Shown piece after piece: positions 3,298 to 31,614 of a stretch of DNA of 44,242 bases. Source of the stretch: Alphaproteobacteria bacterium (GTDB lineage Bacteria > Pseudomonadota > Alphaproteobacteria > Rs-D84). Each line of letters opens with the position of its first letter. Position 1 is the first letter of the stretch. The notes below the pieces were generated by a model that searched no databases, had not been told where the DNA came from, and worked only from the letters and a program-made list of their open reading frames with translations. The stretch covers positions 1-44,242 of the forward strand of contig JBKSMY010000027.1 of assembly GCA_046882065.1 (NCBI GenBank), read 5' to 3'. Both the position numbers and the translations under genes were made by a program.

Positions 3298-5694
3298 ATG
3301 GCTAATATGAAAGATTTTTTGACTGCTTATTACAACAGGCTGATATTTCGTGAAATGTCGCACGAGCAATTTGTGCAATTTTGTGGCTATATCAAAGATA
3401 AAAAGGCAACCGACAACCAGAAAATCTGGGCGGAAGAATTATTAAAAAAAGACCCCGTAACAGGTGAGTTTGAAACCGTACCTGGAACAAATATTTACGT
3501 AAGAAAGGATTTGCCCGAACCGCAAGACCCAGCGGACGAAATGTACCTGGGGGCAGACGATAAAGAATGGAAAAAGCTGTTCAAAGCATTTCAGACCGCC
3601 TTTCAGTCAATGGATGGTGCCAAGAAAAGCTTTAAGTATAACGATAAGGCCACGAAATTCCTGGAACGGTATTTTGGTTCTCATGATAGCGGCGGAATAA
3701 CGATACAGCATCTGTTCCAGTACACTAAAGCAACCGTTGCAGGCAAGCAAAAAATTGGTCCAGCCCCCGCGGGGTCAAATATTGTCACATTACATGGTTT
3801 TTTGACCAAGTATAAAAATCGTTTGGAACTGCAGTTGAAAAACTGGGGATTGTTAACAGACGATTTTTCATATGATGATTTGTTGGGTGGAATTGCATCG
3901 GAAAAATATAACAAAAACCCAAAATTCAGAAAGAATCTGGAAAAAGTTGCCCAGGTTATTGACGGTTATATCGCAGGCGACACAACCATGCAACAACGTC
4001 TGGGGATTACAAATCCATCGGAAATCCCAGATTGCAGTGATACGTCCACATGGTTTGACGATGACAATATCTCGGTATTTCGTCTGGAACAATTCAAACA
4101 CGAATACAGAACACTGCTGGACACCCTTCGTCACGAATCCAAAATACGCGAGGTTTTTGAGCAATATGACGACGGTAAAATTTCTGGCCCGTTGAACAAG
4201 GCGATACAGAATCAGTCATACGACGACCCCAAAAGCGATGATTATGTCCTGCCAAAGCGCGAAGATACTCTGACCTTGCCGGAACGCTTGTCTGAATGGT
4301 GGGGCGATACATATTCCGATTGCCTGGAAAAATACGCCAAACTAAAGGGCGACGAACTATTCTTTTCTTTGGAAGCCAAGGCGATATGTAAACACTTGCG
4401 CAAAGATTTAAAAAAGACGGACGGGTTGGACGGTGTATTGAAAAACATTGGCGCCGCCAAAGACAAACTGCAATCCGCACGTGATTTCAAGGCAAAAAAG
4501 CATCTTGAATGGTTTGACAAGACGCTGAACGCATTGAAAAACGACCCAAAATTATCCAAGGTCTGGGCCGGTGCTTTGAAAAATGGCACGCATATGCAGG
4601 CGTTGGTCAAAGAAATCATGATACGCGCAATCAAAGAAGGCAAAAAGGACGAAGCCAAGACCGCGTTGGAACTGATTTCCGTATTACATTACGACTATAC
4701 CACCAGCAAGATTATGGATGCCCTGGGCAAAGAAAAACTAAGCATCTTTTCTGATGGAAAATTGTCTTGGAATAAAAACGAGGGTATGAAATTCGTTACA
4801 ACTGCGCTAGACAAAAGTATTAAAACCGCATTTATGGGTATCGGATACGGTATCACCATGATTGGCAACGCAATCAATTTATCGGGCAGCAAGATTAAAC
4901 AATATTCTGATAAAAGTGGAAATTTCGCGGCCGAACACAACGCCTATTTAGACAAACAGGCCGCCGACAAGGTGGCGCTTGAAAGCTTGCTGACCAGTGA
5001 ACGCGCACAACAAGCCACAACCCAAGCCACCGTTGATGGAATACGACGTGGGCGAACATACGATGTCGCAAAAACAGATATCGAAGCAGAACTTGGAACC
5101 CTGGACGGGGATGTCGCCACAACCCAGGCGGCATTACAGCAACAGATACAAGACTTTACCAATGTTGTGGTTGACGATGCTACGGGAACGCCCCGTATAA
5201 CAGACCGCGATGATATCAATGCAATAAGTGCTTTTTTAAACGAAGTAAATTCAGATTTGGCCGGCGCCACTACGATTGCTGTTCCTGTGCTGAATACACC
5301 AACTGTGACGGTTGGCCCAACAACATATGACCTGGATCATATGATGCGTCGGATATTGTTGCGTCGTCGCGTTTTGGCGGCCAGAACATCTAGCCGTGAT
5401 TCAAAACAATCAGAATTGGATGACCTGGTAAATGGTACCGAATTATTGACGCAGTTAAATGACCAGATAACCAGACACGCCGACGAAGTGCGCAATTGGG
5501 ATGCCAATCATGTTGATGATTTGGAAGAATTGGTTAAATACTGGAATATGTTGGAAACAGGGCGAAACACCAAAACCGGGCCTATGTACAATTGGTTCAG
5601 AAATCTTAGTGCGAAAAACGCACAAAAGCGTTTTAATGGCCAGGTAAGCACCCTAATTGCTGGCTATAACAGTTCGCATTCTATCGCCGCCTAA
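3298..5694 (+). CDS. Large hypothetical protein with C-terminal coiled-coil
   Basis: Long ORF; start placed at ATG 3298 after AAAGGT; no recognisable motif. Confidence 0.8.
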   Translation: MANMKDFLTAYYNRLIFREMSHEQFVQFCGYIKDKKATDNQKIWAEELLKKDPVTGEFETVPGTNIYVRKDLPEPQDPADEMYLGADDKEWKKLFKAFQTAFQSMDGAKKSFKYNDKATKFLERYFGSHDSGGITIQHLFQYTKATVAGKQKIGPAPAGSNIVTLHGFLTKYKNRLELQLKNWGLLTDDFSYDDLLGGIASEKYNKNPKFRKNLEKVAQVIDGYIAGDTTMQQRLGITNPSEIPDCSDTSTWFDDDNISVFRLEQFKHEYRTLLDTLRHESKIREVFEQYDDGKISGPLNKAIQNQSYDDPKSDDYVLPKREDTLTLPERLSEWWGDTYSDCLEKYAKLKGDELFFSLEAKAICKHLRKDLKKTDGLDGVLKNIGAAKDKLQSARDFKAKKHLEWFDKTLNALKNDPKLSKVWAGALKNGTHMQALVKEIMIRAIKEGKKDEAKTALELISVLHYDYTTSKIMDALGKEKLSIFSDGKLSWNKNEGMKFVTTALDKSIKTAFMGIGYGITMIGNAINLSGSKIKQYSDKSGNFAAEHNAYLDKQAADKVALESLLTSERAQQATTQATVDGIRRGRTYDVAKTDIEAELGTLDGDVATTQAALQQQIQDFTNVVVDDATGTPRITDRDDINAISAFLNEVNSDLAGATTIAVPVLNTPTVTVGPTTYDLDHMMRRILLRRRVLAARTSSRDSKQSELDDLVNGTELLTQLNDQITRHADEVRNWDANHVDDLEELVKYWNMLETGRNTKTGPMYNWFRNLSAKNAQKRFNGQVSTLIAGYNSSHSIAA

Positions 5695-22063: not shown

Positions 22064-23338
22064 ATGCTTGAAACCGTGAAACCAATCTTGAATGCAACGC
22101 AGTTATCCGCATTTAATGCGATTGAACGCACGAACTCTAATTTGCTGATATTGGGGCCTGCGGGAACTGGTAAATCTACATTTGTAAATTATCTGAAAAG
22201 CGCATCAAAAAAGCGTATTGTCTGTGCGTGTCCAACGGCGGTATCGGCCTTGAACGTTGGCGGTCAGACGATACATTCACTGTTCCAGATTCAGCCACGC
22301 GATTTTATTATGCCCGAGTTTTTGAAATTAAAGGCAAAGCCACGCAATATTCTGAATGCAACAGATGTTTTGATTATTGATGAAATTTCGATGGTTGCGC
22401 CTGATTTACTGGACGCGATTGACATCCTGGCGCGTTGGGCGCGTCGCAATAACGAACCGTTTGGTGGCATCCAGGTTGTTGCCATTGGTGATTTGTATCA
22501 ATTACCACCTGTAATCACGCGCGAAGCGACGCAGTATTATGAAACAGAATATGGACATCCGAACGCATACTTTTTTGACAGCAATGTTTACAAGCGCGCG
22601 AATTTTATAAAATATAACTTTGATTTTGTTTATCGCCAAAGTGATTTGCCATTGTTGGAAAATCTGGTGCAGTTGCGTAATAACAATACAGACAGTCTGG
22701 AATATTTTAACGCGTGCCGTATTGATGATGACGCACGTCGTGCTAACGCGGTATTGATTACGCCATTTCGTGCGGTTGCAGAACGCATAAACGCAACGCG
22801 TCTGGCCCAGATAAATGAAACACCGGTTGTTTATAATGGTGTATTGACTGGCAATTTTGCAGAACGTGATGTTCCTGCGCCACTTGCGTTGGAATTAAAG
22901 GTTGGCGCATTGGTTATATTTGTGAAAAATGGCGACAAATGGCATAACGGCTCGATGGGGCTGGTGCGCAGTCTAACCGCCCGCGAAATCATTGTTCAGT
23001 TATTATCAGATTCACGCGAATTAGTTGCGGTAAAACCAGAAAAATGGGCCAAGATAGAATATTCGCGTGATGAAAACGAACGTCTGGTTGAAAACGAGGT
23101 TGGCGCATATAAACAGTTCCCATTAACACTTGGCTATGCCATGACAATTCATCGCGCCCAGGGCAAAACCTTGGATGCGGTTGTGGTTGATATATCGCGT
23201 GGGGCGTTTGCCCATGGCCAGGTGTATGTGGCATTATCGCGCACCCGTCGCAGTTCCGATATGCACGTTGCCGCACCCCTGCGTCCGCGTGATGTTATAT
23301 TTGATTCGCGTGTTTTGGAATTTGTTTCTAACGACTAA
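22064..23338 (+). CDS. PIF1/RecD-like SF1B DNA helicase
   Basis: GPAGTGKS, IIDEISM, GDLYQLPPV, QFPLxLGYAMTIHRAQGKT, YVALSR. Confidence 0.9.
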   Translation: MLETVKPILNATQLSAFNAIERTNSNLLILGPAGTGKSTFVNYLKSASKKRIVCACPTAVSALNVGGQTIHSLFQIQPRDFIMPEFLKLKAKPRNILNATDVLIIDEISMVAPDLLDAIDILARWARRNNEPFGGIQVVAIGDLYQLPPVITREATQYYETEYGHPNAYFFDSNVYKRANFIKYNFDFVYRQSDLPLLENLVQLRNNNTDSLEYFNACRIDDDARRANAVLITPFRAVAERINATRLAQINETPVVYNGVLTGNFAERDVPAPLALELKVGALVIFVKNGDKWHNGSMGLVRSLTAREIIVQLLSDSRELVAVKPEKWAKIEYSRDENERLVENEVGAYKQFPLTLGYAMTIHRAQGKTLDAVVVDISRGAFAHGQVYVALSRTRRSSDMHVAAPLRPRDVIFDSRVLEFVSND

Positions 23339-23751
23339 ATTTGCTGAAAATTTCGCGCCCGTTAACGCGCATTTGTGCAATGTCTATGTTATCCCCAGAT
23401 ACTAATTGTTCTGCGGTTGGCAATGTCGGATTGTTAACAGAATTGATTGCGTTGTTAATTGCGTTTTGTTCTGCCCCAAAGATGACCTGGCCATTTGGTG
23501 TTAAATCGGTTCCAACCCCCTTGTATCCAATACTAAAGCCATGTTCAGAACCGTTTATTTTGAATTATGTTTGCTAAATGTTCGATATACCCGAATGCCT
23601 TATCTTCGGTTGTGGTCAATGCCCCACCAAGAACCGCCAATGCCGGTTTATTTAGATCAATTTTGTCTGCATATAAAAAACGTCGCCCGTTGCCTGTGGG
23701 GGTTGGGCTTTGTTTAATAATGTGCGCGCTGCTGCCGACATAGTTCATCAT
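23328..23751 (-). pseudogene. Frameshifted remnant of a hypothetical gene
   Basis: 68-aa ORF stops at 23545. A second frame (KINGSEHGFSIGY...FSKFSR*) is open from about 23561 to TAG at 23328 without a start codon at its 5' end. Confidence 0.6.
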
Positions 23752-24134
23752 ATATCTTTCCTCATCATAATGGCGTCCACGCCATCATAGTACCTAGGTC
23801 TGCGACCGACATCGACGAATCCGCATTGTTCGTACAGGGCGCGGGCAGCGGTGTTATCTTCCGCCACCTCTAAAAATATATGCTTAACACCTTGTTTTTT
23901 CAGGTCTGCTTCCATCACTCCAATCAGTGCAATCCCAATGCCCGTACGCCGCGCATCAGGATGTACACCGATTGTAATAATTTCTGCTTCGTCACACACG
24001 GCGCGATATACAATAAAGCCATTTTGACTAGCGATTATTTCGCACCCAGATTTTTTTAAATCGGCAAACTGGTCTGCGTCCCACGGTTTATGTGGGAAAC
24101 AAAGTTTATGAAGATTTGCCAGATTGTCTAACAC
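23748..24134 (-). CDS. rimI: RimI-like GNAT acetyltransferase
   Basis: DEAEIITIGV, RRTGIG, FLEVAEDN, RPRYY; close to tsaB. Confidence 0.85.
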   Translation of the reverse strand: MLDNLANLHKLCFPHKPWDADQFADLKKSGCEIIASQNGFIVYRAVCDEAEIITIGVHPDARRTGIGIALIGVMEADLKKQGVKHIFLEVAEDNTAARALYEQCGFVDVGRRPRYYDGVDAIMMRKDI

Positions 24135-24153: not shown

Positions 24154-24525
24154 TTAGCGCTTGTGAATAAACGCAGGGTTTTTCCATTCTTGCCTTAACT
24201 GTGTTTTTGCAATTTGTTCTGCGAATCTTGATTCCAGTACACTGAAAAATCTTTTTGCGTACTTGTCTGTGTCGCGTGCCGATGAAACAGATTTTTGTGT
24301 TTTTGTATCTGACTTGACCATTACTTTCAAGATATATTTGCGTATATTGTTTGACACCTTGTTCTTCATCGCATATGCAGATATGCAAACATCTTTGCTG
24401 TCGATATAATAGCAATGCACAACAGTATTTGTGCCGTTACCAGAACTGGATGTATATTTAACCTTTGCGTGTTCGATCGCATTGTTAATTGCGTCTTTGC
24501 TTCGTGTAAAAAATTCATTTGTCAT
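24154..24525 (-). CDS. Hypothetical protein
   Basis: 123-aa ORF filling the gap between tsaB and rimI. Confidence 0.6.
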   Translation of the reverse strand: MTNEFFTRSKDAINNAIEHAKVKYTSSSGNGTNTVVHCYYIDSKDVCISAYAMKNKVSNNIRKYILKVMVKSDTKTQKSVSSARDTDKYAKRFFSVLESRFAEQIAKTQLRQEWKNPAFIHKR

Positions 24526-24527
24526 GT

Positions 24528-25073
24528 TCAGTTGTCCTTTTTATTTTGTTCTGCATAACTGGGACGCATATACATAGGCACCACTGGTGCGCTTTCACCT
24601 GTGGCAACTTTCTGTTCTACTATTTTTACCCCCAGCCTTAAATCGAATGGTCTGTGTCCAACGGTACGCGGCCATTCCATTTGCTTGGTTTCAATCTGTT
24701 CTATTTCCATTGTTTGCGGTTCTAAACCGTTTGCGGCGACAAAGAAATCCCCACGACCGGAATCGATTGCAACGAATGCATCTGGCGTTGCGGCCAAATA
24801 CAAATCAAAAGCGCTTATTCCAACAACAGGTATGTTCAATCCCATCGCAATTCCTTTGGCGTATGCAATCCCCAGTCGAATTCCTGTAAAACTGCCTGGG
24901 CCTACAACTACACCAATCGCTGATATGTCGCGCCATGATGCACCACATTCAGCAATAAACTTTTCGCATTCTTGGGGCAATGCAATTGACTGTTTTTCAA
25001 CCACAACAGACTTGTATTCATTTCCCAATACAAATTCCAGGTTTGCCCCCGATGTATTAATTACCAGAATCAT
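24528..25073 (-). CDS. tsaB: t6A biosynthesis protein TsaB
   Basis: MILVINTS, GPGSFTGIRLG, PMYMR; SD AAGGAG. Confidence 0.92.
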   Translation of the reverse strand: MILVINTSGANLEFVLGNEYKSVVVEKQSIALPQECEKFIAECGASWRDISAIGVVVGPGSFTGIRLGIAYAKGIAMGLNIPVVGISAFDLYLAATPDAFVAIDSGRGDFFVAANGLEPQTMEIEQIETKQMEWPRTVGHRPFDLRLGVKIVEQKVATGESAPVVPMYMRPSYAEQNKKDN

Positions 25074-25098
25074 TTTTGATTCTCCTTTATTCCCTGCA

Positions 25099-25221
25099 TC
25101 AGTTCCCACATATACCGTGCAATCGTACCACTTTTTTAAATTCCTGAATCTGTTTATGACCATCCCCGATTACCACCGGTTCTACTGCCTGACCATTCAA
25201 GATGATTGTATTGTTCGTCAT
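25099..25221 (-). CDS. Putative 40-aa small protein coupled to the lon-like stop
   Basis: ATGA overlap with the lon-like TGA; MTNNTIILNGQAVEPVVIGDGHKQIQEFKKVVRLHGICGN*. Confidence 0.4.
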   Translation of the reverse strand: MTNNTIILNGQAVEPVVIGDGHKQIQEFKKVVRLHGICGN

Positions 25222-26981
25222 ACGCGCACCCCGAAACCGATTTTCTTTGAAAATCCTGCGGACTTTCGTGACGCCAATAGTTCATCGATTTTTTCAGGTG
25301 TAAATTCTGTCTTGGTATCAATACAGTCATTTTCCAACAAGGACCGACGCAAAATAGCGGTAATTTCACGCTGTGCCTGACGTACCCCTTGTTCGGACGT
25401 ATAGTTCTGAATCAGGTGTCTAATTGCATCGTCGCTGATAACGATATCATCCGTATTCCAGCCCGTATCACGCGCAGCACGACCGATTAAATGTTCGCGT
25501 GTAATTTTGACCTTGTCATCCATTGAATAGCCTGGAATTTCGATAATTTCCATACGATCTTTCAGGGCGTTTGACATATTCAAACTGTTTGCTGTCGCAA
25601 TAAACATCACGTTCGACAGGTCAAAGTCAACTTCCAAATAATGATCCCGGAATGTCTTGTTCTGTTCTGGGTCTAAAATTTCCAGCAATGCAGATTCTGG
25701 ATCGCCACGCCAATCACGTCCCATTTTATCGATTTCATCCAGAACAATAACAGGATTATTTGTTTTGCAACGTTTCAACGCATCCATAATGCGCCCCGTC
25801 TGTGCGCCAATATATGTCTTGCGATGACCGCGGAAATGCGCTTCGTCTGAAATTCCGCCCAGGGAAATTCGCTGATATTTGCGCCCCAAGGCCGTTGCGA
25901 TAGATTTGCCCAACGAAGTTTTGCCCACACCTGGTGCACCGACAAAGCACAAAATCGAACCCTGATTTGATTTTGTCTTTTTCATTACGGCGATGTGTTC
26001 CAGAATACGTTCTTTGACTGCGTCCATACCTGAATGTTCGCTGTCTAAAACTTCGCGCGCATGTTTCAAGTCAATTTCTGCCTCATCAGACTTGCCCCAT
26101 GGCATCGCCAACAGTTCGTCCAGATATGTTTTCAACAATCCGCCTTCATTAGACATTGGCGACATAGAACGCATGCGTTTCCATTCCGCCATGGCTTTTT
26201 CCTTGGCTTCTGCCGGCATACTGGATTTCAAAATCTTTTTGCGAATGTTTGCGGTGTCCACCTCTGCGTCATCTTCGCCCATTTCTTTTTGCAGGGCGCG
26301 CATCTTTTCTTGTAATATTGCTTCGCGCCGCCCGTTTTCCATTTGTTGGTGAATACGTTTATTGATTGATTCTTCTATCTTTGCGGTTTCAACCATCAGT
26401 TTTACCGCCTCTAACAGAATATTTAATTTTTCGGCCCAACTGGTTGCACTCAGCACCTTTACAGCAACATCTGTTTCGATATCTGCGGTCTGAATCACAG
26501 CGTCCACAAAAGCGGGCAGGGGGTAATTTTCAATCACATTGCGCAGTTTTTCCATTTTGAACTTGCGCGTGGACAATGCCAATGTCTGCATATTGTCCGC
26601 CAGAATATCGCGCAGAACAATTGTTTGTTCTGCGTTCATATCGTCTGCAACGTCAATCTTTTCCGGTGTTCCTGTGAATATGCCGTCGTTAATTTCAATG
26701 TCTTTGATTGCCACCGCGTCTGTTGTACGCACCAACAGGTGAATTGCCCCATCTGGCATAGACAGCACCTGAACCACGTCGCCAATTGTTCCAACGGTAT
26801 AGATATCATCGATACTGGATGGGTATGCCCAACTGTGCTGCGACACCAGAATCAACTGCTGATGTCCTGCATTTGCAGCGGCCTTGATACAATTAACAGA
26901 CATGTGATTATCGACCAACACCGGCACAGTCAGCCCCGGTGAAACGACCAAATCACGAAATGGCAAAATATAGTTCTTCAT
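25218..26981 (-). CDS. Lon-family AAA+ ATPase lacking the protease domain
   Basis: LON N-domain (LPFRDLVV), Walker A GAPGVGKTS, Walker B IVLDEIDK, DHYLEVDFDLSNVMFIATAN, DRMEII. No PKDGPSAG catalytic motif. Confidence 0.9.
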   Translation of the reverse strand: MKNYILPFRDLVVSPGLTVPVLVDNHMSVNCIKAAANAGHQQLILVSQHSWAYPSSIDDIYTVGTIGDVVQVLSMPDGAIHLLVRTTDAVAIKDIEINDGIFTGTPEKIDVADDMNAEQTIVLRDILADNMQTLALSTRKFKMEKLRNVIENYPLPAFVDAVIQTADIETDVAVKVLSATSWAEKLNILLEAVKLMVETAKIEESINKRIHQQMENGRREAILQEKMRALQKEMGEDDAEVDTANIRKKILKSSMPAEAKEKAMAEWKRMRSMSPMSNEGGLLKTYLDELLAMPWGKSDEAEIDLKHAREVLDSEHSGMDAVKERILEHIAVMKKTKSNQGSILCFVGAPGVGKTSLGKSIATALGRKYQRISLGGISDEAHFRGHRKTYIGAQTGRIMDALKRCKTNNPVIVLDEIDKMGRDWRGDPESALLEILDPEQNKTFRDHYLEVDFDLSNVMFIATANSLNMSNALKDRMEIIEIPGYSMDDKVKITREHLIGRAARDTGWNTDDIVISDDAIRHLIQNYTSEQGVRQAQREITAILRRSLLENDCIDTKTEFTPEKIDELLASRKSAGFSKKIGFGVRV

Positions 26982-27033
26982 AGCCCAATAAATATAATAC
27001 ATTTTATTTGCATTTCAAGATGAATAAAAATGC

Positions 27034-28271: not shown

Positions 28272-29567
28272 CTAATTGCCGTTTAATATGTCGCCGGCTT
28301 TGATATATTCGGGGGAATTTTTTTTCAGTTTCTTTTGTGCGCGTTTGGCATAGGATTTGGCTTCGGCGTCTTTCCCGATCATCTTGTTATATTCTGCCAA
28401 CGCCCATGCGTTTCGACCTGTATCTGTATCTCCGTATGCCCGCGCCAACACCCAATACGCAAGGGGGGCAGGTTCTGACAAAATTGCGCGCTTACACATT
28501 TCAATTGCGCGCGCGTTATCGCCCGGTTTATTTCGTTCGCTTAACACTAATGCCAATGCGGTCTGAATCTGTGGCGCGTTCCCCGTCAATTCTAACGATT
28601 TTTCGTATGCGCTAACGCTGTCGTCATAGTGTCCAAATTGATATTCAATATCCCCCAGTAATTCATAGAAATATGGATTGTTTGGATTTCTTGATATCAA
28701 TGTACTGGTTCCCACACGCGCCCCATCCAGATTGCCACCACGCATGTTCGCAATTGCCCGCGCATAAATCGCTGCATCAGATTTATCGTGGCTTGGGTAT
28801 TTTTCGCGAACTTGTTGCGCTGTGTCCAGATAACCGACCAGTTTTGCACGCACCAGTTCATATTCCGCCACATCTGCGGTTTTCCATTTTTTATCATCGC
28901 CAATTTGCGCAATTTGTTCGCGCACATTGTTTAATCGTTCGGTGGTCAGCGGGTGATTTATGCGATTTGGATTTATGCGTGATTCAAGTACGCCTGTCAA
29001 ATCATGCATTTGTTCCAGAACAGTAACAAACCCATTTGGATTCTGCTTTGCTTGCACCATTAAATCCACGCCCATATTGTCTGCGATACGTTCTTCATCG
29101 CGTGTGAATGCCAACATAGATTGTTGTGCAACCCCGGACGAGCCTGCCAAAACCCCAGCCCCCAGCGTCGGATTGCCCCCCGCTACCATCAGCCCAACCC
29201 CCAACGCCTGAATCAACATAGTGCGTTTCATTTCCGCATTCATACGATCTGACATCTGGGCCATGTGCCCACCAAGTGTATGTCCCAATTCGTGTGCAAT
29301 TACTGCCTGCAATGCGTTTGGTGTTTTTATCTGTTTTAATAGACCGGTATAAACATAAATATCTTCGCCACCCATAACGAACGCGTTAAAGTCTTCGTCA
29401 TTGACAATATGTATCTTCATTCGTCCATCTGGAATATTGGCAGCGCGCGCAAGTGGCGCAACCAATTCACCAATCACACGTTCTGTTTCTGTGTCGTTTA
29501 TTAGCGATGCCCCCATTGATGGTATGGCGACAATCAGCGATAATAAAAATACAAAAATCTTACGCAC
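28272..29567 (-). CDS. M48 metalloprotease with TPR repeats (BepA/YfgC-like)
   Basis: Signal peptide, FNAF, AHELGH, EERIAD, HP motif, TPR-like C-terminus. GTG start overlaps the recG stop. Confidence 0.88.
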   Translation of the reverse strand: MRKIFVFLLSLIVAIPSMGASLINDTETERVIGELVAPLARAANIPDGRMKIHIVNDEDFNAFVMGGEDIYVYTGLLKQIKTPNALQAVIAHELGHTLGGHMAQMSDRMNAEMKRTMLIQALGVGLMVAGGNPTLGAGVLAGSSGVAQQSMLAFTRDEERIADNMGVDLMVQAKQNPNGFVTVLEQMHDLTGVLESRINPNRINHPLTTERLNNVREQIAQIGDDKKWKTADVAEYELVRAKLVGYLDTAQQVREKYPSHDKSDAAIYARAIANMRGGNLDGARVGTSTLISRNPNNPYFYELLGDIEYQFGHYDDSVSAYEKSLELTGNAPQIQTALALVLSERNKPGDNARAIEMCKRAILSEPAPLAYWVLARAYGDTDTGRNAWALAEYNKMIGKDAEAKSYAKRAQKKLKKNSPEYIKAGDILNGN

Positions 29568-31614
29568 CCAATACCACCCCACGGTCAAAGAAGTACATTA
29601 AATCGCGTACCCACGAATCTATATCATTATCACGCGCGGCGGTCGAAGCCAACTTGAATAAATCCCGATGTTCACGATAATCCACAAAATAGTATCGCAT
29701 CCAGCCGCTTTGTCGTGTGCCCAATAATTCACCAACGCCACGCATCATTAAATCTTGTTCTGCGATAACAAATCCGTCATCAGTTTCGCATAACACGTCC
29801 AGTCGCTTTAATCCGTCATCTGATACGTTTCGTCCAAATACCAATACACAGTACGACTGCGTGTTGCCGCGTCCAACGCGCCCGCGCAACTGGTGTAATG
29901 CTGCCAAACCAAACCGTTCTGCGTTTTCGATTACAATAATAGAAGCCTGTGGAACATCAATTCCAACCTCGATAACAGTTGTTGCAACCAATATCGGCAT
30001 ATCGGAATCTTTTGCTGCAAATTCCGCCATAACTGCGTCGCGTTCTTTCTTGTCCATTTTACCATGAACCAATCCTGCGTTTGGAAAGTATTCAGACAGC
30101 ATTTTATGCCGTTCTTCGGCGGCGGTCATCGCGTTGTCGTTTTCTGATTCTTCGACCAGCGGACAAACCCAGAACACCTTGGCACCTGCATTGACTTGCA
30201 TATCAATACGTTCCAACAAATCCATAATTCGGCCACATGATAATTTGGTTGTTTTAATCGGCTTTCGTCCGGCGGGCTTTTCGTTGATAATTGACACATC
30301 CATATCGCCATAGATTGTCATGGACAACGTTCGTGGAATTGGTGTTGCAGACAGCGCCAACAAATCTGTGTTTGTTCCTTTGTTGCGCAATGCTTCGCGT
30401 TGGGCGACGCCAAATCTGTGCTGTTCATCAATTATAACCAGTCCCAAATCTTTGTATTCAACGTCTGCGGAAAACAGCGCATGCGTCCCCACAACCACAC
30501 GCGTGCGCCCCGACCGCAGCGACACTAACTTTTCTCGACGTGCCACCCCTTTGTCGCGCCCGGTCAGAATATCGCAGACAATTCCGATTTTATCACACAA
30601 AGGCTTTAATTTCGCAAAGTGTTGTTGTGCCAAAGTATCTGTTGGGGCTAATATGGCGGTCTGGCCGCCCATTTCTGCCATTCGCACGGCGGCGGCCAAT
30701 GCAACAATGGTTTTTCCGCTGCCTACGTCCCCTTGGACTAATCGCATCATCGGCACGTCGCGTGTCATATCATAAAAGATTTCATCACATGTGCGCTTTT
30801 GCGCGCCTGTCATCTCAAAAGGCAGCGTTGCCCAAAACTTGTCCATTAAATCGTATTTTTTTGCCCGTGCGTTTCGACGATTTCGTACATCCATGCGATT
30901 ACGTCTGCTGATAACAATTGCCGCCTGATGTGCCAACAGTTCACAGTACGCCAACTTTGCCATATACGTTGCGTTCGGTGCTAAATCTGCATCAGACTTT
31001 GGGAAATGCACATGTTCCAACGCATCAAAAAATTCCAACACGCGTTCATCGCTTTCGCCACGCAGTTTGTCGGGCAGGGCGGCAAAAATCTGGTCGCGAA
31101 TATTTGCGAATACTTTTTGTGTCAGTCCTTCACCTGCGGGATAAATTGCCTGGGCGGATGGAATTTTGGCTGCGTTTTGTAGTTCTTCGATAAAGTCTGG
31201 ATGGTTAATTGTTGGCTTTGTTGTCTTTTCCAGTTTTCCCGACACCATGCGCCATGTACCCACCGGCATTTTGTTCAGCCAATAATCCAGATATTTCGCA
31301 TTAAAGAACTGGATAATAACAGTATTTCCTAATTTGTCATTACATGTAATCTGGGTTGGACTGCGGCGGCCGCGAAATGCGCGTCCTGTTCGATGAGATT
31401 TTATCATCAGCGGAACAGTAATCGTGTCGCCTGGATTTGCGTCCAGCACATTTTCTGTTATTCCGCGTGCGCGCACATAAGACGGGCGATGACGCAGAAA
31501 ATCCAGTACACGTCGTCCGCCCAAAACTTCATCCAGTCTTGTGGCCAATGCAGGACCCACCCCGCGAATAAATTGCAGGTCAGTATTTAAAAAATCTACT
31601 ATCTCACGTCTCAT
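29560..31614 (-). CDS. recG: ATP-dependent DNA helicase RecG
   Basis: QGDVGSGKT, IIDEQHRFGV, SATPIPRTL, LHQLRGRVGRG. Confidence 0.97.
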   Translation of the reverse strand: MRREIVDFLNTDLQFIRGVGPALATRLDEVLGGRRVLDFLRHRPSYVRARGITENVLDANPGDTITVPLMIKSHRTGRAFRGRRSPTQITCNDKLGNTVIIQFFNAKYLDYWLNKMPVGTWRMVSGKLEKTTKPTINHPDFIEELQNAAKIPSAQAIYPAGEGLTQKVFANIRDQIFAALPDKLRGESDERVLEFFDALEHVHFPKSDADLAPNATYMAKLAYCELLAHQAAIVISRRNRMDVRNRRNARAKKYDLMDKFWATLPFEMTGAQKRTCDEIFYDMTRDVPMMRLVQGDVGSGKTIVALAAAVRMAEMGGQTAILAPTDTLAQQHFAKLKPLCDKIGIVCDILTGRDKGVARREKLVSLRSGRTRVVVGTHALFSADVEYKDLGLVIIDEQHRFGVAQREALRNKGTNTDLLALSATPIPRTLSMTIYGDMDVSIINEKPAGRKPIKTTKLSCGRIMDLLERIDMQVNAGAKVFWVCPLVEESENDNAMTAAEERHKMLSEYFPNAGLVHGKMDKKERDAVMAEFAAKDSDMPILVATTVIEVGIDVPQASIIVIENAERFGLAALHQLRGRVGRGNTQSYCVLVFGRNVSDDGLKRLDVLCETDDGFVIAEQDLMMRGVGELLGTRQSGWMRYYFVDYREHRDLFKLASTAARDNDIDSWVRDLMYFFDRGVVLGA

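Follow-up and report, generated by a model that had tools for sequence, protein, structure and literature searches.

Lon-deltaP, a protease-less Lon with a ClpX-like terminal motif: a candidate unfoldase for ClpP in an alphaproteobacterial family

What becomes of a Lon that has kept its motor and lost its peptidase? Lon is the textbook AAA+ protease (ATPase associated with diverse cellular activities), with motor and peptidase fused in one chain. The question is raised by a contig of a gut alphaproteobacterium (JBKSMY010000027.1, assembly GCA_046882065.1), analysed over its whole length of 44,242 nucleotides and hereafter called the window. It carries on its minus strand a gene, here termed lon-deltaP, for a LonA that lacks the protease domain and ends in a tail with the tripeptide IGF. 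On balance we favour, with some reserve, the reading that the product is a Lon-derived unfoldase docking on ClpP through a ClpX-like motif, because the motif is invariant, it matches the cognate ClpX, a second phylum has converged on the same solution, the motor is intact and no other chamber was found.

Architecture and terminal motif of Lon-deltaP

The gene and the parts of its product are as follows.

25218..26981, minus strand: lon-deltaP coding sequence, a protease-less LonA of 587 aa, closed by TGA at 25218-25220 (translation, Pfam, NCBIfam)
26403..26969, minus strand: Lon N-terminal substrate-binding domain, residues 5-193 (Pfam PF02190, LON_substr_bdg, E 8.1e-21)
25542..25952, minus strand: AAA+ alpha/beta module, residues 344-480 (Pfam PF00004, E 6.2e-22; invariant columns; alignment with 6u5z)
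25338..25466, minus strand: Lon lid or small alpha subdomain, residues 506-548, with the invariant R534 (Pfam PF22667, E 3.8e-12)
25221..25262, minus strand: flexible C-terminal tail SAGFSKKIGFGVRV, residues 574-587 (translation; AlphaFold2 confidence)
25233..25241, minus strand: IGF tripeptide, residues 581-583, candidate ClpP-docking motif (translation, conservation, codon usage)

The earlier note on this DNA had described an open reading frame (ORF) of 587 aa with the Lon N-domain and AAA+ module and no protease domain, and translation and Pfam confirm that description. The frame of 587 codons closes with ...SAGFSKKIGFGVRV and TGA. An in-frame ATG upstream, at 27002, would extend the product to 594 aa; the shorter form is likelier, since the alignment of orthologues begins at the MK.YILP start. 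All NCBIfam matches of the protein were to Lon models, and the best solved relative was the 784-aa Lon protease 6u5z_A (query 5-548 on chain 13-556, E 3e-129). The LON substrate-binding N-domain, an A-type AAA+ module and the Lon lid, all features of LonA, are present. The protease (P) domain with its Ser-Lys dyad is absent, the Pfam search did not find Lon_C (PF05362) in the protein, and the NCBIfam equivalog 'lon' (TIGR00763) scored 543.5 bits, under its cut-off of 608.05, with positions 2-563 of the 795 in the profile covered. The AlphaFold2 model had a mean predicted local distance difference test (pLDDT) of 81.1 and a predicted template modelling score of 0.53. At NCBI, public orthologues are named 'AAA family ATPase [Alphaproteobacteria bacterium]'.

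Conservation of the motor was assessed across 39 truncated orthologues (48-96% identity), in all of which K354, D415, E416, Y390, N465, R476 and R534 were invariant; the same seven residues also align on Lon 6u5z. We take K354 to be the Walker A lysine, D415 and E416 the Walker B pair, Y390 the pore loop, N465 sensor-1, R476 the arginine finger and R534 sensor-2. The stop position of these orthologues is conserved to within a few codons. The ratio of nonsynonymous to synonymous substitution rates (dN/dS) was 0.033 and 0.046 for the two least diverged, unsaturated pairs among 23 genus sequences, with synonymous sites mostly saturated across the 253 pairs (median proportion of synonymous differences 0.73; dS computable for 160). 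Judged by these sequences, the ATPase and translocation motor is fully intact, and the truncated Lon is a fixed, selected state and not decay.

The tail is variable in most positions and strictly conserved in three. The pattern [KR][KR]IGF occurs in 39/39 diverse orthologues and KKIGF in 121/121 near homologues, and I581, G582 and F583 are the sole invariant columns among the last 40 residues of the 39 aligned sequences. The residue after IGF is G, S, H, Q, N, R or T, followed by 2-8 more, giving a distance of 3-9 residues from the motif to the end; the linker ahead of the motif and the terminal residues vary. All three Ile, all four Gly and both Phe codons are used for the motif across orthologues, and since every synonymous codon is in use, selection acts on the protein. 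Conservation of the truncation point and of the terminal IGF under purifying selection, proposed earlier as a check, was thus borne out, and the opposite outcome, an IGF not conserved among truncated orthologues, did not apply. A reading of the tail as a C-terminal degron or HbYX motif was rejected, as the last residues and their distance from the end are not conserved.

In the AlphaFold2 model the last helix spans residues 562-573 and residues 573-587 have a pLDDT below 50; the tail is predicted to be disordered. By alignment, its point of exit from the small AAA+ subdomain corresponds to the start of the protease ring in full-length Lon. The consensus for ClpP docking is a tripeptide of a hydrophobic residue, Gly and Phe or Leu on a flexible, surface-exposed element. 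Lon-deltaP fits this consensus with an invariant IGF in its low-confidence segment, carried on a tail and not on a loop.

The resemblance extends beyond the tripeptide to the organism's own ClpX. In the source genome (876 kb in 45 contigs, 93.7% complete, the window being contig C27), clpP and clpX lie side by side on contig C14 (ClpP match C14:6828-7367; clpX C14:7428-8624). This ClpX is the only match above cut-off to TIGR00382, a family to which Lon-deltaP does not belong, and its loop reads ...ERCGIGFGAHVESK... Set against each other, GIGFGAHV of ClpX and KIGFGVRV of the Lon tail are identical in 5/7 residues from the Ile on, and in some species the tail reads IGFGVHV. In most species the Lon tails follow IGFG(V/A/I/L)x(V/I/A/L). 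ClpX loops were readable in 29/30 family loci examined, and those of the genera with truncated Lon follow IGFGAx(V/I) in 27/27. At the level of sequence, the tail matches the docking loop of the organism's own ClpX.

As a separate observation, the ClpX loops of two sampled genera with full-length Lon read VGFGSTI and MGFGASV (loci L070 and L071, vs L072-L099 for the truncated-Lon genera). This difference between the two sets of genera may reflect phylogeny or co-adaptation.

Loss of the protease domain and remodelling of its stump

The domain could in principle have persisted behind a frameshift or as a separate gene. The features downstream of lon-deltaP bear on this, together with one system found in a relative.

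25074..25217, no strand: intergenic spacer between lon-deltaP and tsaB (gene starts and stops)
24528..25073, minus strand: tsaB (TsaD/Kae1-family fold), the downstream neighbour (Pfam PF00814; start read from sequence)
23748..24134, minus strand: GNAT (GCN5-related N-acetyltransferase) gene, rimI-like, a member of the conserved lon-tsaB-GNAT neighbourhood (Pfam PF00583)
994-3045 of contig C3 in genome G279 (L266): BREX (bacteriophage exclusion) system with PglZ, then the Lon-like protease BrxL, and a WYL protein nearby; also on contig C18 of genome G284

The most plausible tsaB start is the ATG at 25073, which has an AAGGAG box ahead of it and leaves a spacer of 144 nt, in agreement with the approximately 145 nt noted earlier; the alternative, the first in-frame ATG at 25163, leaves 54 nt. 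Either spacer has no room for a protease domain of about 200 aa. A search of all frames of the source genome for Lon_C was negative (0/1, at the completeness given above). A separate protease gene or a hidden frameshift is thereby ruled out, and the earlier claim that no protease domain hides behind a frameshift was upheld. The 101 genomes of the genus, 76 of them of high quality, likewise had no Lon_C match. A larger genus sample had two matches in 199 genomes; as candidates for a housekeeping Lon these were rejected, both being BrxL of a BREX system, adjoining PglZ. With these two exceptions, no full-length lon or separate Lon_C gene was found in the genus. The earlier proposal to look in the genome for clpP, clpX, full-length lon and Lon_C accordingly turned up the first two and neither of the others.

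The loss is confined to a part of one family. Lon_C was detected in 5/151 family genomes, belonging to genera g13 (1/1), g14 (3/4) and g22 (1/1), and in none of the 15 other genera (18 sampled); it was present in 20/20 genomes sampled from five other families of the order. Orthologues of lon-deltaP were found in 146/151 family genomes, the five misses being genomes 61-92% complete. In the 15 genera without Lon_C the orthologue frames measure 585-647 aa at identities down to 54%, pieces at contig ends excepted, and the Lon frames of g22 and g14 measure 769-808 aa at 46-50%. The truncated form is therefore fixed in 15/18 sampled genera. Directly downstream of the full-length lon of g14 come tsaB and the GNAT gene, in the order seen in the window, and lon-deltaP has no conserved neighbour except these two, both of which also flank full-length lon. 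Near-identical DNA was found in runs of up to 13 studies labelled as animal gut, faeces or manure metagenomes, possibly including the source study; a look for RNA data on it was negative.

A maximum-likelihood tree was built from the N-domain and AAA region, with supports from the Shimodaira-Hasegawa-like approximate likelihood ratio test (SH-aLRT). The alignment was cut at residue 550, so the tail had no influence on the tree. It comprised 15 of the 39 truncated sequences, 4 full-length sequences of the family, 8 of 9 full-length sequences of the order (L032 omitted), 5 truncated and 10 hand-picked full-length Bacteroidales proteins, and 25 other representatives. The alphaproteobacterial truncated Lons formed one clade (SH-aLRT 100) inside the Lon of the family (100) and sister to g14 (96). 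Since full-length genera carry their lon at the same locus and lie outside a monophyletic truncated clade, the domain was lost in situ, and once, within the alphaproteobacterial family. Full-length Lon at this locus in close relatives had been named earlier as an outcome that would tell against the idea; such Lons do exist in sister genera, but they fall outside the truncated clade, and the idea is not refuted by them.

The origin of the tail can be read from an L-INS-i alignment with full-length relatives, which pairs its K-K-I-G with D-x-(V/I)-G, the residues that open the protease domain's strand beta1. This first strand reads (V/I)G(V/I)(V/I)(N/T)GLAW... in the full-length proteins, and a section of PMC9569914 describes the P domains of Lons as all starting with a beta1-beta2 hairpin. 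Lon-deltaP ends about 7 residues into the strand. Relative to it, V/I has become F and basic residues have been gained, and the linker before IGF is 4 residues shorter than in the full-length relatives. Because the IG of the tail aligns on the (V/I)G of beta1, the tail is what is left of the protease domain after remodelling, as opposed to a newly inserted element. The view in the earlier note, that the domain had been replaced by a flexible IGF tail, holds for the flexibility; the replacement does not, the tail being a remnant of beta1.

A second truncated clade was found near Bacteroidales. The representative search returned P0175 (615 aa), with 38% identity to the Lon-deltaP protein, and P0272-P0275 (626-627 aa), with 61-66% identity to P0175; Lon_C was not found in any of these five. 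Their nearest relatives are full-length Lons of Bacteroidales/Muribaculaceae, at no more than 57% identity, and scans of genome and metagenome contigs for the genomic context of the clade returned no relative above 57-59%, those being of the full-length type. In the tree the five group together as a clade (SH-aLRT 100) within the Lon of Bacteroidales (100, 98), well apart from the alphaproteobacterial one. From two separately nested truncated clades it follows that truncation occurred on two occasions, at one and the same point of Lon. The C-termini of the second clade read ...RR(T/V)FG(R/H)VGFS plus 3-4 residues, and the corresponding stretch of full-length relatives is ...EFPGVVTGLAW.... Changes common to both clades are a Phe after the Gly, a basic residue before the motif and a small residue after it. 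In three Bacteroidales genomes the ClpX loops are HVVGFTT, HTVGYAT and HVVGYST, and each truncated Lon tail thus resembles the ClpX motif of its own lineage, IGFG in one and VGF(S/T) in the other.

Whether Lon has been converted naturally, and at least twice independently, into a partner of ClpP, its stump remodelled into the organism's own ClpX motif to give a natural Lon-ClpP hybrid protease, is in our judgement evenly poised. Given the convergent second clade, the tail motif would offer a signature with predictive value for searches in other phyla.

Two further Lon-like representatives, P0243 (577 aa) and P0194 (587 aa), end just past the lid and lack a tail with a hydrophobic residue, Gly and Phe; they may be fragments from contig ends or further protease-less forms. 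A search of the ESM Atlas excluding clusters with Lon_C returned only clusters of 348-532 aa, at 0.86-0.93, which are probably fragments.

Other genes of the window were recorded in passing. A 123-aa ORF at 24154-24525 on the minus strand separates tsaB from the GNAT gene, which abut in the g14 loci. A PIF1/RecD-like helicase of 424 aa (PF05970, E 2.6e-23) lies at 22064-23338 on the plus strand, in a genome of about 0.9 Mb. About 1.3 kb upstream of lon-deltaP, at 28272-29588 on the minus strand, is a fusion of an M48 peptidase with tetratricopeptide repeats, probably unrelated to lon-deltaP and presumably resembling a BepA-type envelope protease.

ClpP as candidate partner and the rival explanations

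Candidate chambers were surveyed in the source genome. HslV was not found there and is rejected as partner; HslU was not found either, only cross-matches of ClpX, and the same genome yielded no second ClpP, no proteasome and no ClpA. Its sole Hsp100 is a ClpB on another contig (G000:C22:5037-7241, minus strand), which matches the ClpB model from position 146 on, hence without the N-terminal domain, and has no IG[FL] motif; a membrane FtsH-like frame is also present. ClpP was detected in 149/151 family genomes. As no HslV, HslU or Lon_C was found, ClpP is the sole free chambered candidate, provided that Lon-deltaP feeds a chamber at all. In G129, from the most divergent genus with truncated Lon, lon-deltaP (contig C60, locus L051, 1632-3425) lies directly upstream of clpP (3692-4270) on the same strand, at a distance of 266 nt. 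An operon link as a general feature was rejected, the arrangement being seen in G129 only, one of the three genomes of its genus with a match.

Three copies of ClpP (31-sequence alignment) were co-folded with Lon residues 553-587 (39-sequence alignment). The interaction prediction score from aligned errors (ipSAE) was 0.56 (three runs 0.55, 0.56 and 0.58), compared with 0.00 for the best of three controls; the runs had at least 68% of their contacts in common, the pLDDT of the partner was at least 44, and the output listed no contacts. In the calibration, from which this co-fold differs in its custom alignments and three copies, the mark was reached by 116/157 solved complexes and 2/215 mismatched pairs, and the range at or below 0.60 held 18 of the 157 solved complexes plus both passing mismatches. 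Modelling of the tail with ClpP, which the earlier note had suggested, therefore gave a pass, and it weakly supports a predicted docking of the tail.

For the mechanism, we propose that the protease domain was cut within its first strand and that the stump would then have been reshaped into a docking motif of the ClpX type. We infer that the protein could form a hexamer without the P domain, dock on ClpP and deliver substrates. In such a Lon-deltaP hexamer up to six tails would insert at the hydrophobic sites where ClpP subunits meet, in the manner of ClpX, and clients of the Lon type would be threaded by the motor into the ClpP chamber. One peptidase, ClpP, could then serve two unfoldases, ClpX and Lon-deltaP, in genomes of about 0.9 Mb.

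Several points weigh against this reading. ClpX is present in 96/101 genus genomes, adjoining clpP, so ClpP is not orphaned and needs no new partner. The adjacency of lon-deltaP and clpP noted for G129 is absent from the genome of the window, where the genes lie on C27 and C14. The motif sits on a C-terminal tail about 8 residues past the last helix, and that of ClpX on a long loop within the chain, fixed at its two ends. The IG goes back to the protease domain, so the likeness to ClpX is in part older than the truncation. The co-fold pass falls in the 'weak' band and, since ClpX-ClpP complexes have already been solved, may reflect likeness or memory. The Bacteroidales-type clade is known from five protein clusters only, all from Logan assemblies. 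The reading also assumes that a LonA ring would be stable without its protease ring.

Its main rival is a stand-alone unfoldase or chaperone, a motor without peptidase engaged in remodelling, disaggregation or a DNA-linked task, with the tail serving ring assembly, autoregulation or an adaptor. We consider this a real contender, though clearly less probable. Lon has a proteolysis-independent, chaperone-like activity, motor and N-domain are intact in Lon-deltaP, ClpXP is already complete in these genomes, lon-deltaP and clpP are unlinked in most of them, and the co-fold speaks for ClpP only weakly. A free-standing function would leave unexplained both the 5/7 match of the tail to the ClpX docking loop and the VGFS tail with which an independent Bacteroidales clade matches Bacteroidales ClpX loops, and the remnant strand has no known partner within the molecule once the P domain is gone. 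The motif evidence would fit equally a regulator that binds ClpP without delivering substrates, its tail gating ClpP or competing with ClpX, which is present and could contend for the same sites. The invariant pore-loop Tyr, Walker motifs, arginine finger and N-domain would be costly in a mere plug, and dN/dS is low across the whole gene; we hold a pure regulator to be improbable.

Lon-deltaP might instead serve an unrecognised peptidase encoded elsewhere. The genome is incomplete and has many ORFs without a family, and in one genome (L050) a Peptidase_S51 gene lies downstream of lon-deltaP. The motif is nonetheless of the ClpP-docking type, the searches for HslV, Lon_C and a second ClpP were negative, and the only conserved neighbours, tsaB and the GNAT gene, also accompany full-length lon, which makes such a partner very improbable. 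Least credible of all, and close to negligible, is a decaying remnant or an assembly artefact. Genome reduction to about 0.9 Mb and the loss of Lon proteolysis would suit decay; the same architecture is shared by 15 genera and seen in over 140 independent assemblies, with dN/dS of 0.03-0.05, unchanged ATPase residues and a stop kept in place, and in our view this already refutes it.

Were docking of Lon-deltaP on ClpP true, AAA+ motors and peptidase chambers could be re-paired in evolution. The partners of ClpP are regarded as limited to the Clp/Hsp100 families; Lon-deltaP would add to the unfoldases of ClpP a fourth kind, one that has the substrate logic of Lon, and the substrate repertoire of Lon would be degraded within the ClpP chamber. 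Genomes of about 0.9 Mb could streamline proteostasis by sharing one chamber. With two proteins, the system is small enough for direct study in vitro.

Relation to known systems

Targeted full-text searches, with incomplete coverage of the literature, turned up only general reviews of ClpXP and Lon, and no account of a Lon that lacks its protease domain and carries a ClpP-docking IGF motif. The closest system by descent is the LonA protease (endopeptidase La, MEROPS S16). Lon-deltaP has in common with it a homologous N-domain, AAA+ module and lid, and also its locus in sister genera; the difference is the absence of the entire proteolytic domain and its Ser-Lys dyad. According to a passage of PMC9569914, all Lons contain ATPase and protease domains. 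With the P domain absent, Lon-deltaP is therefore not a Lon protease by the definition of the family, and, as far as its sequence tells, it is not a Clp ATPase either.

With ClpX, ClpA and ClpC it has in common the tripeptide on a flexible element, with the flanks IGFG(A/V)x(V/I) of the cognate ClpX. It differs from ClpX in being homologous in the AAA+ fold only and in the position of the motif, 3-9 residues from the C-terminus, where ClpX has it on a loop inside the large AAA+ domain. Recognition of substrates is also predicted to differ, through the Lon N-domain in Lon-deltaP and through a zinc-binding domain in ClpX.

HslU and the proteasomal ATPases PAN, Rpt and Mpa dock by C-terminal tails, and the proposed docking of Lon-deltaP would likewise use a C-terminal tail at the exit face of an AAA+ ring to reach a peptidase ring. 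In those systems the distance from motif to carboxylate is fixed, and in Lon-deltaP it is 3-9 residues with a variable end. By that variable distance, and with no HslV found in the source genome, Lon-deltaP falls outside docking of the HslU/HbYX type.

We read Lon-deltaP as a hybrid of the Lon motor and the Clp docking principle, apparently undescribed. Its nearest counterpart in design is BAP, reportedly an engineered ClpB with the docking loop of ClpA that feeds ClpP. In both, an unfoldase foreign to ClpP would be directed to it by an added IG(F/L) element, on the same design principle; BAP is a laboratory construct made from a disaggregase, whereas the conversion of Lon-deltaP appears to be natural, to have happened twice and to have started from a protease.

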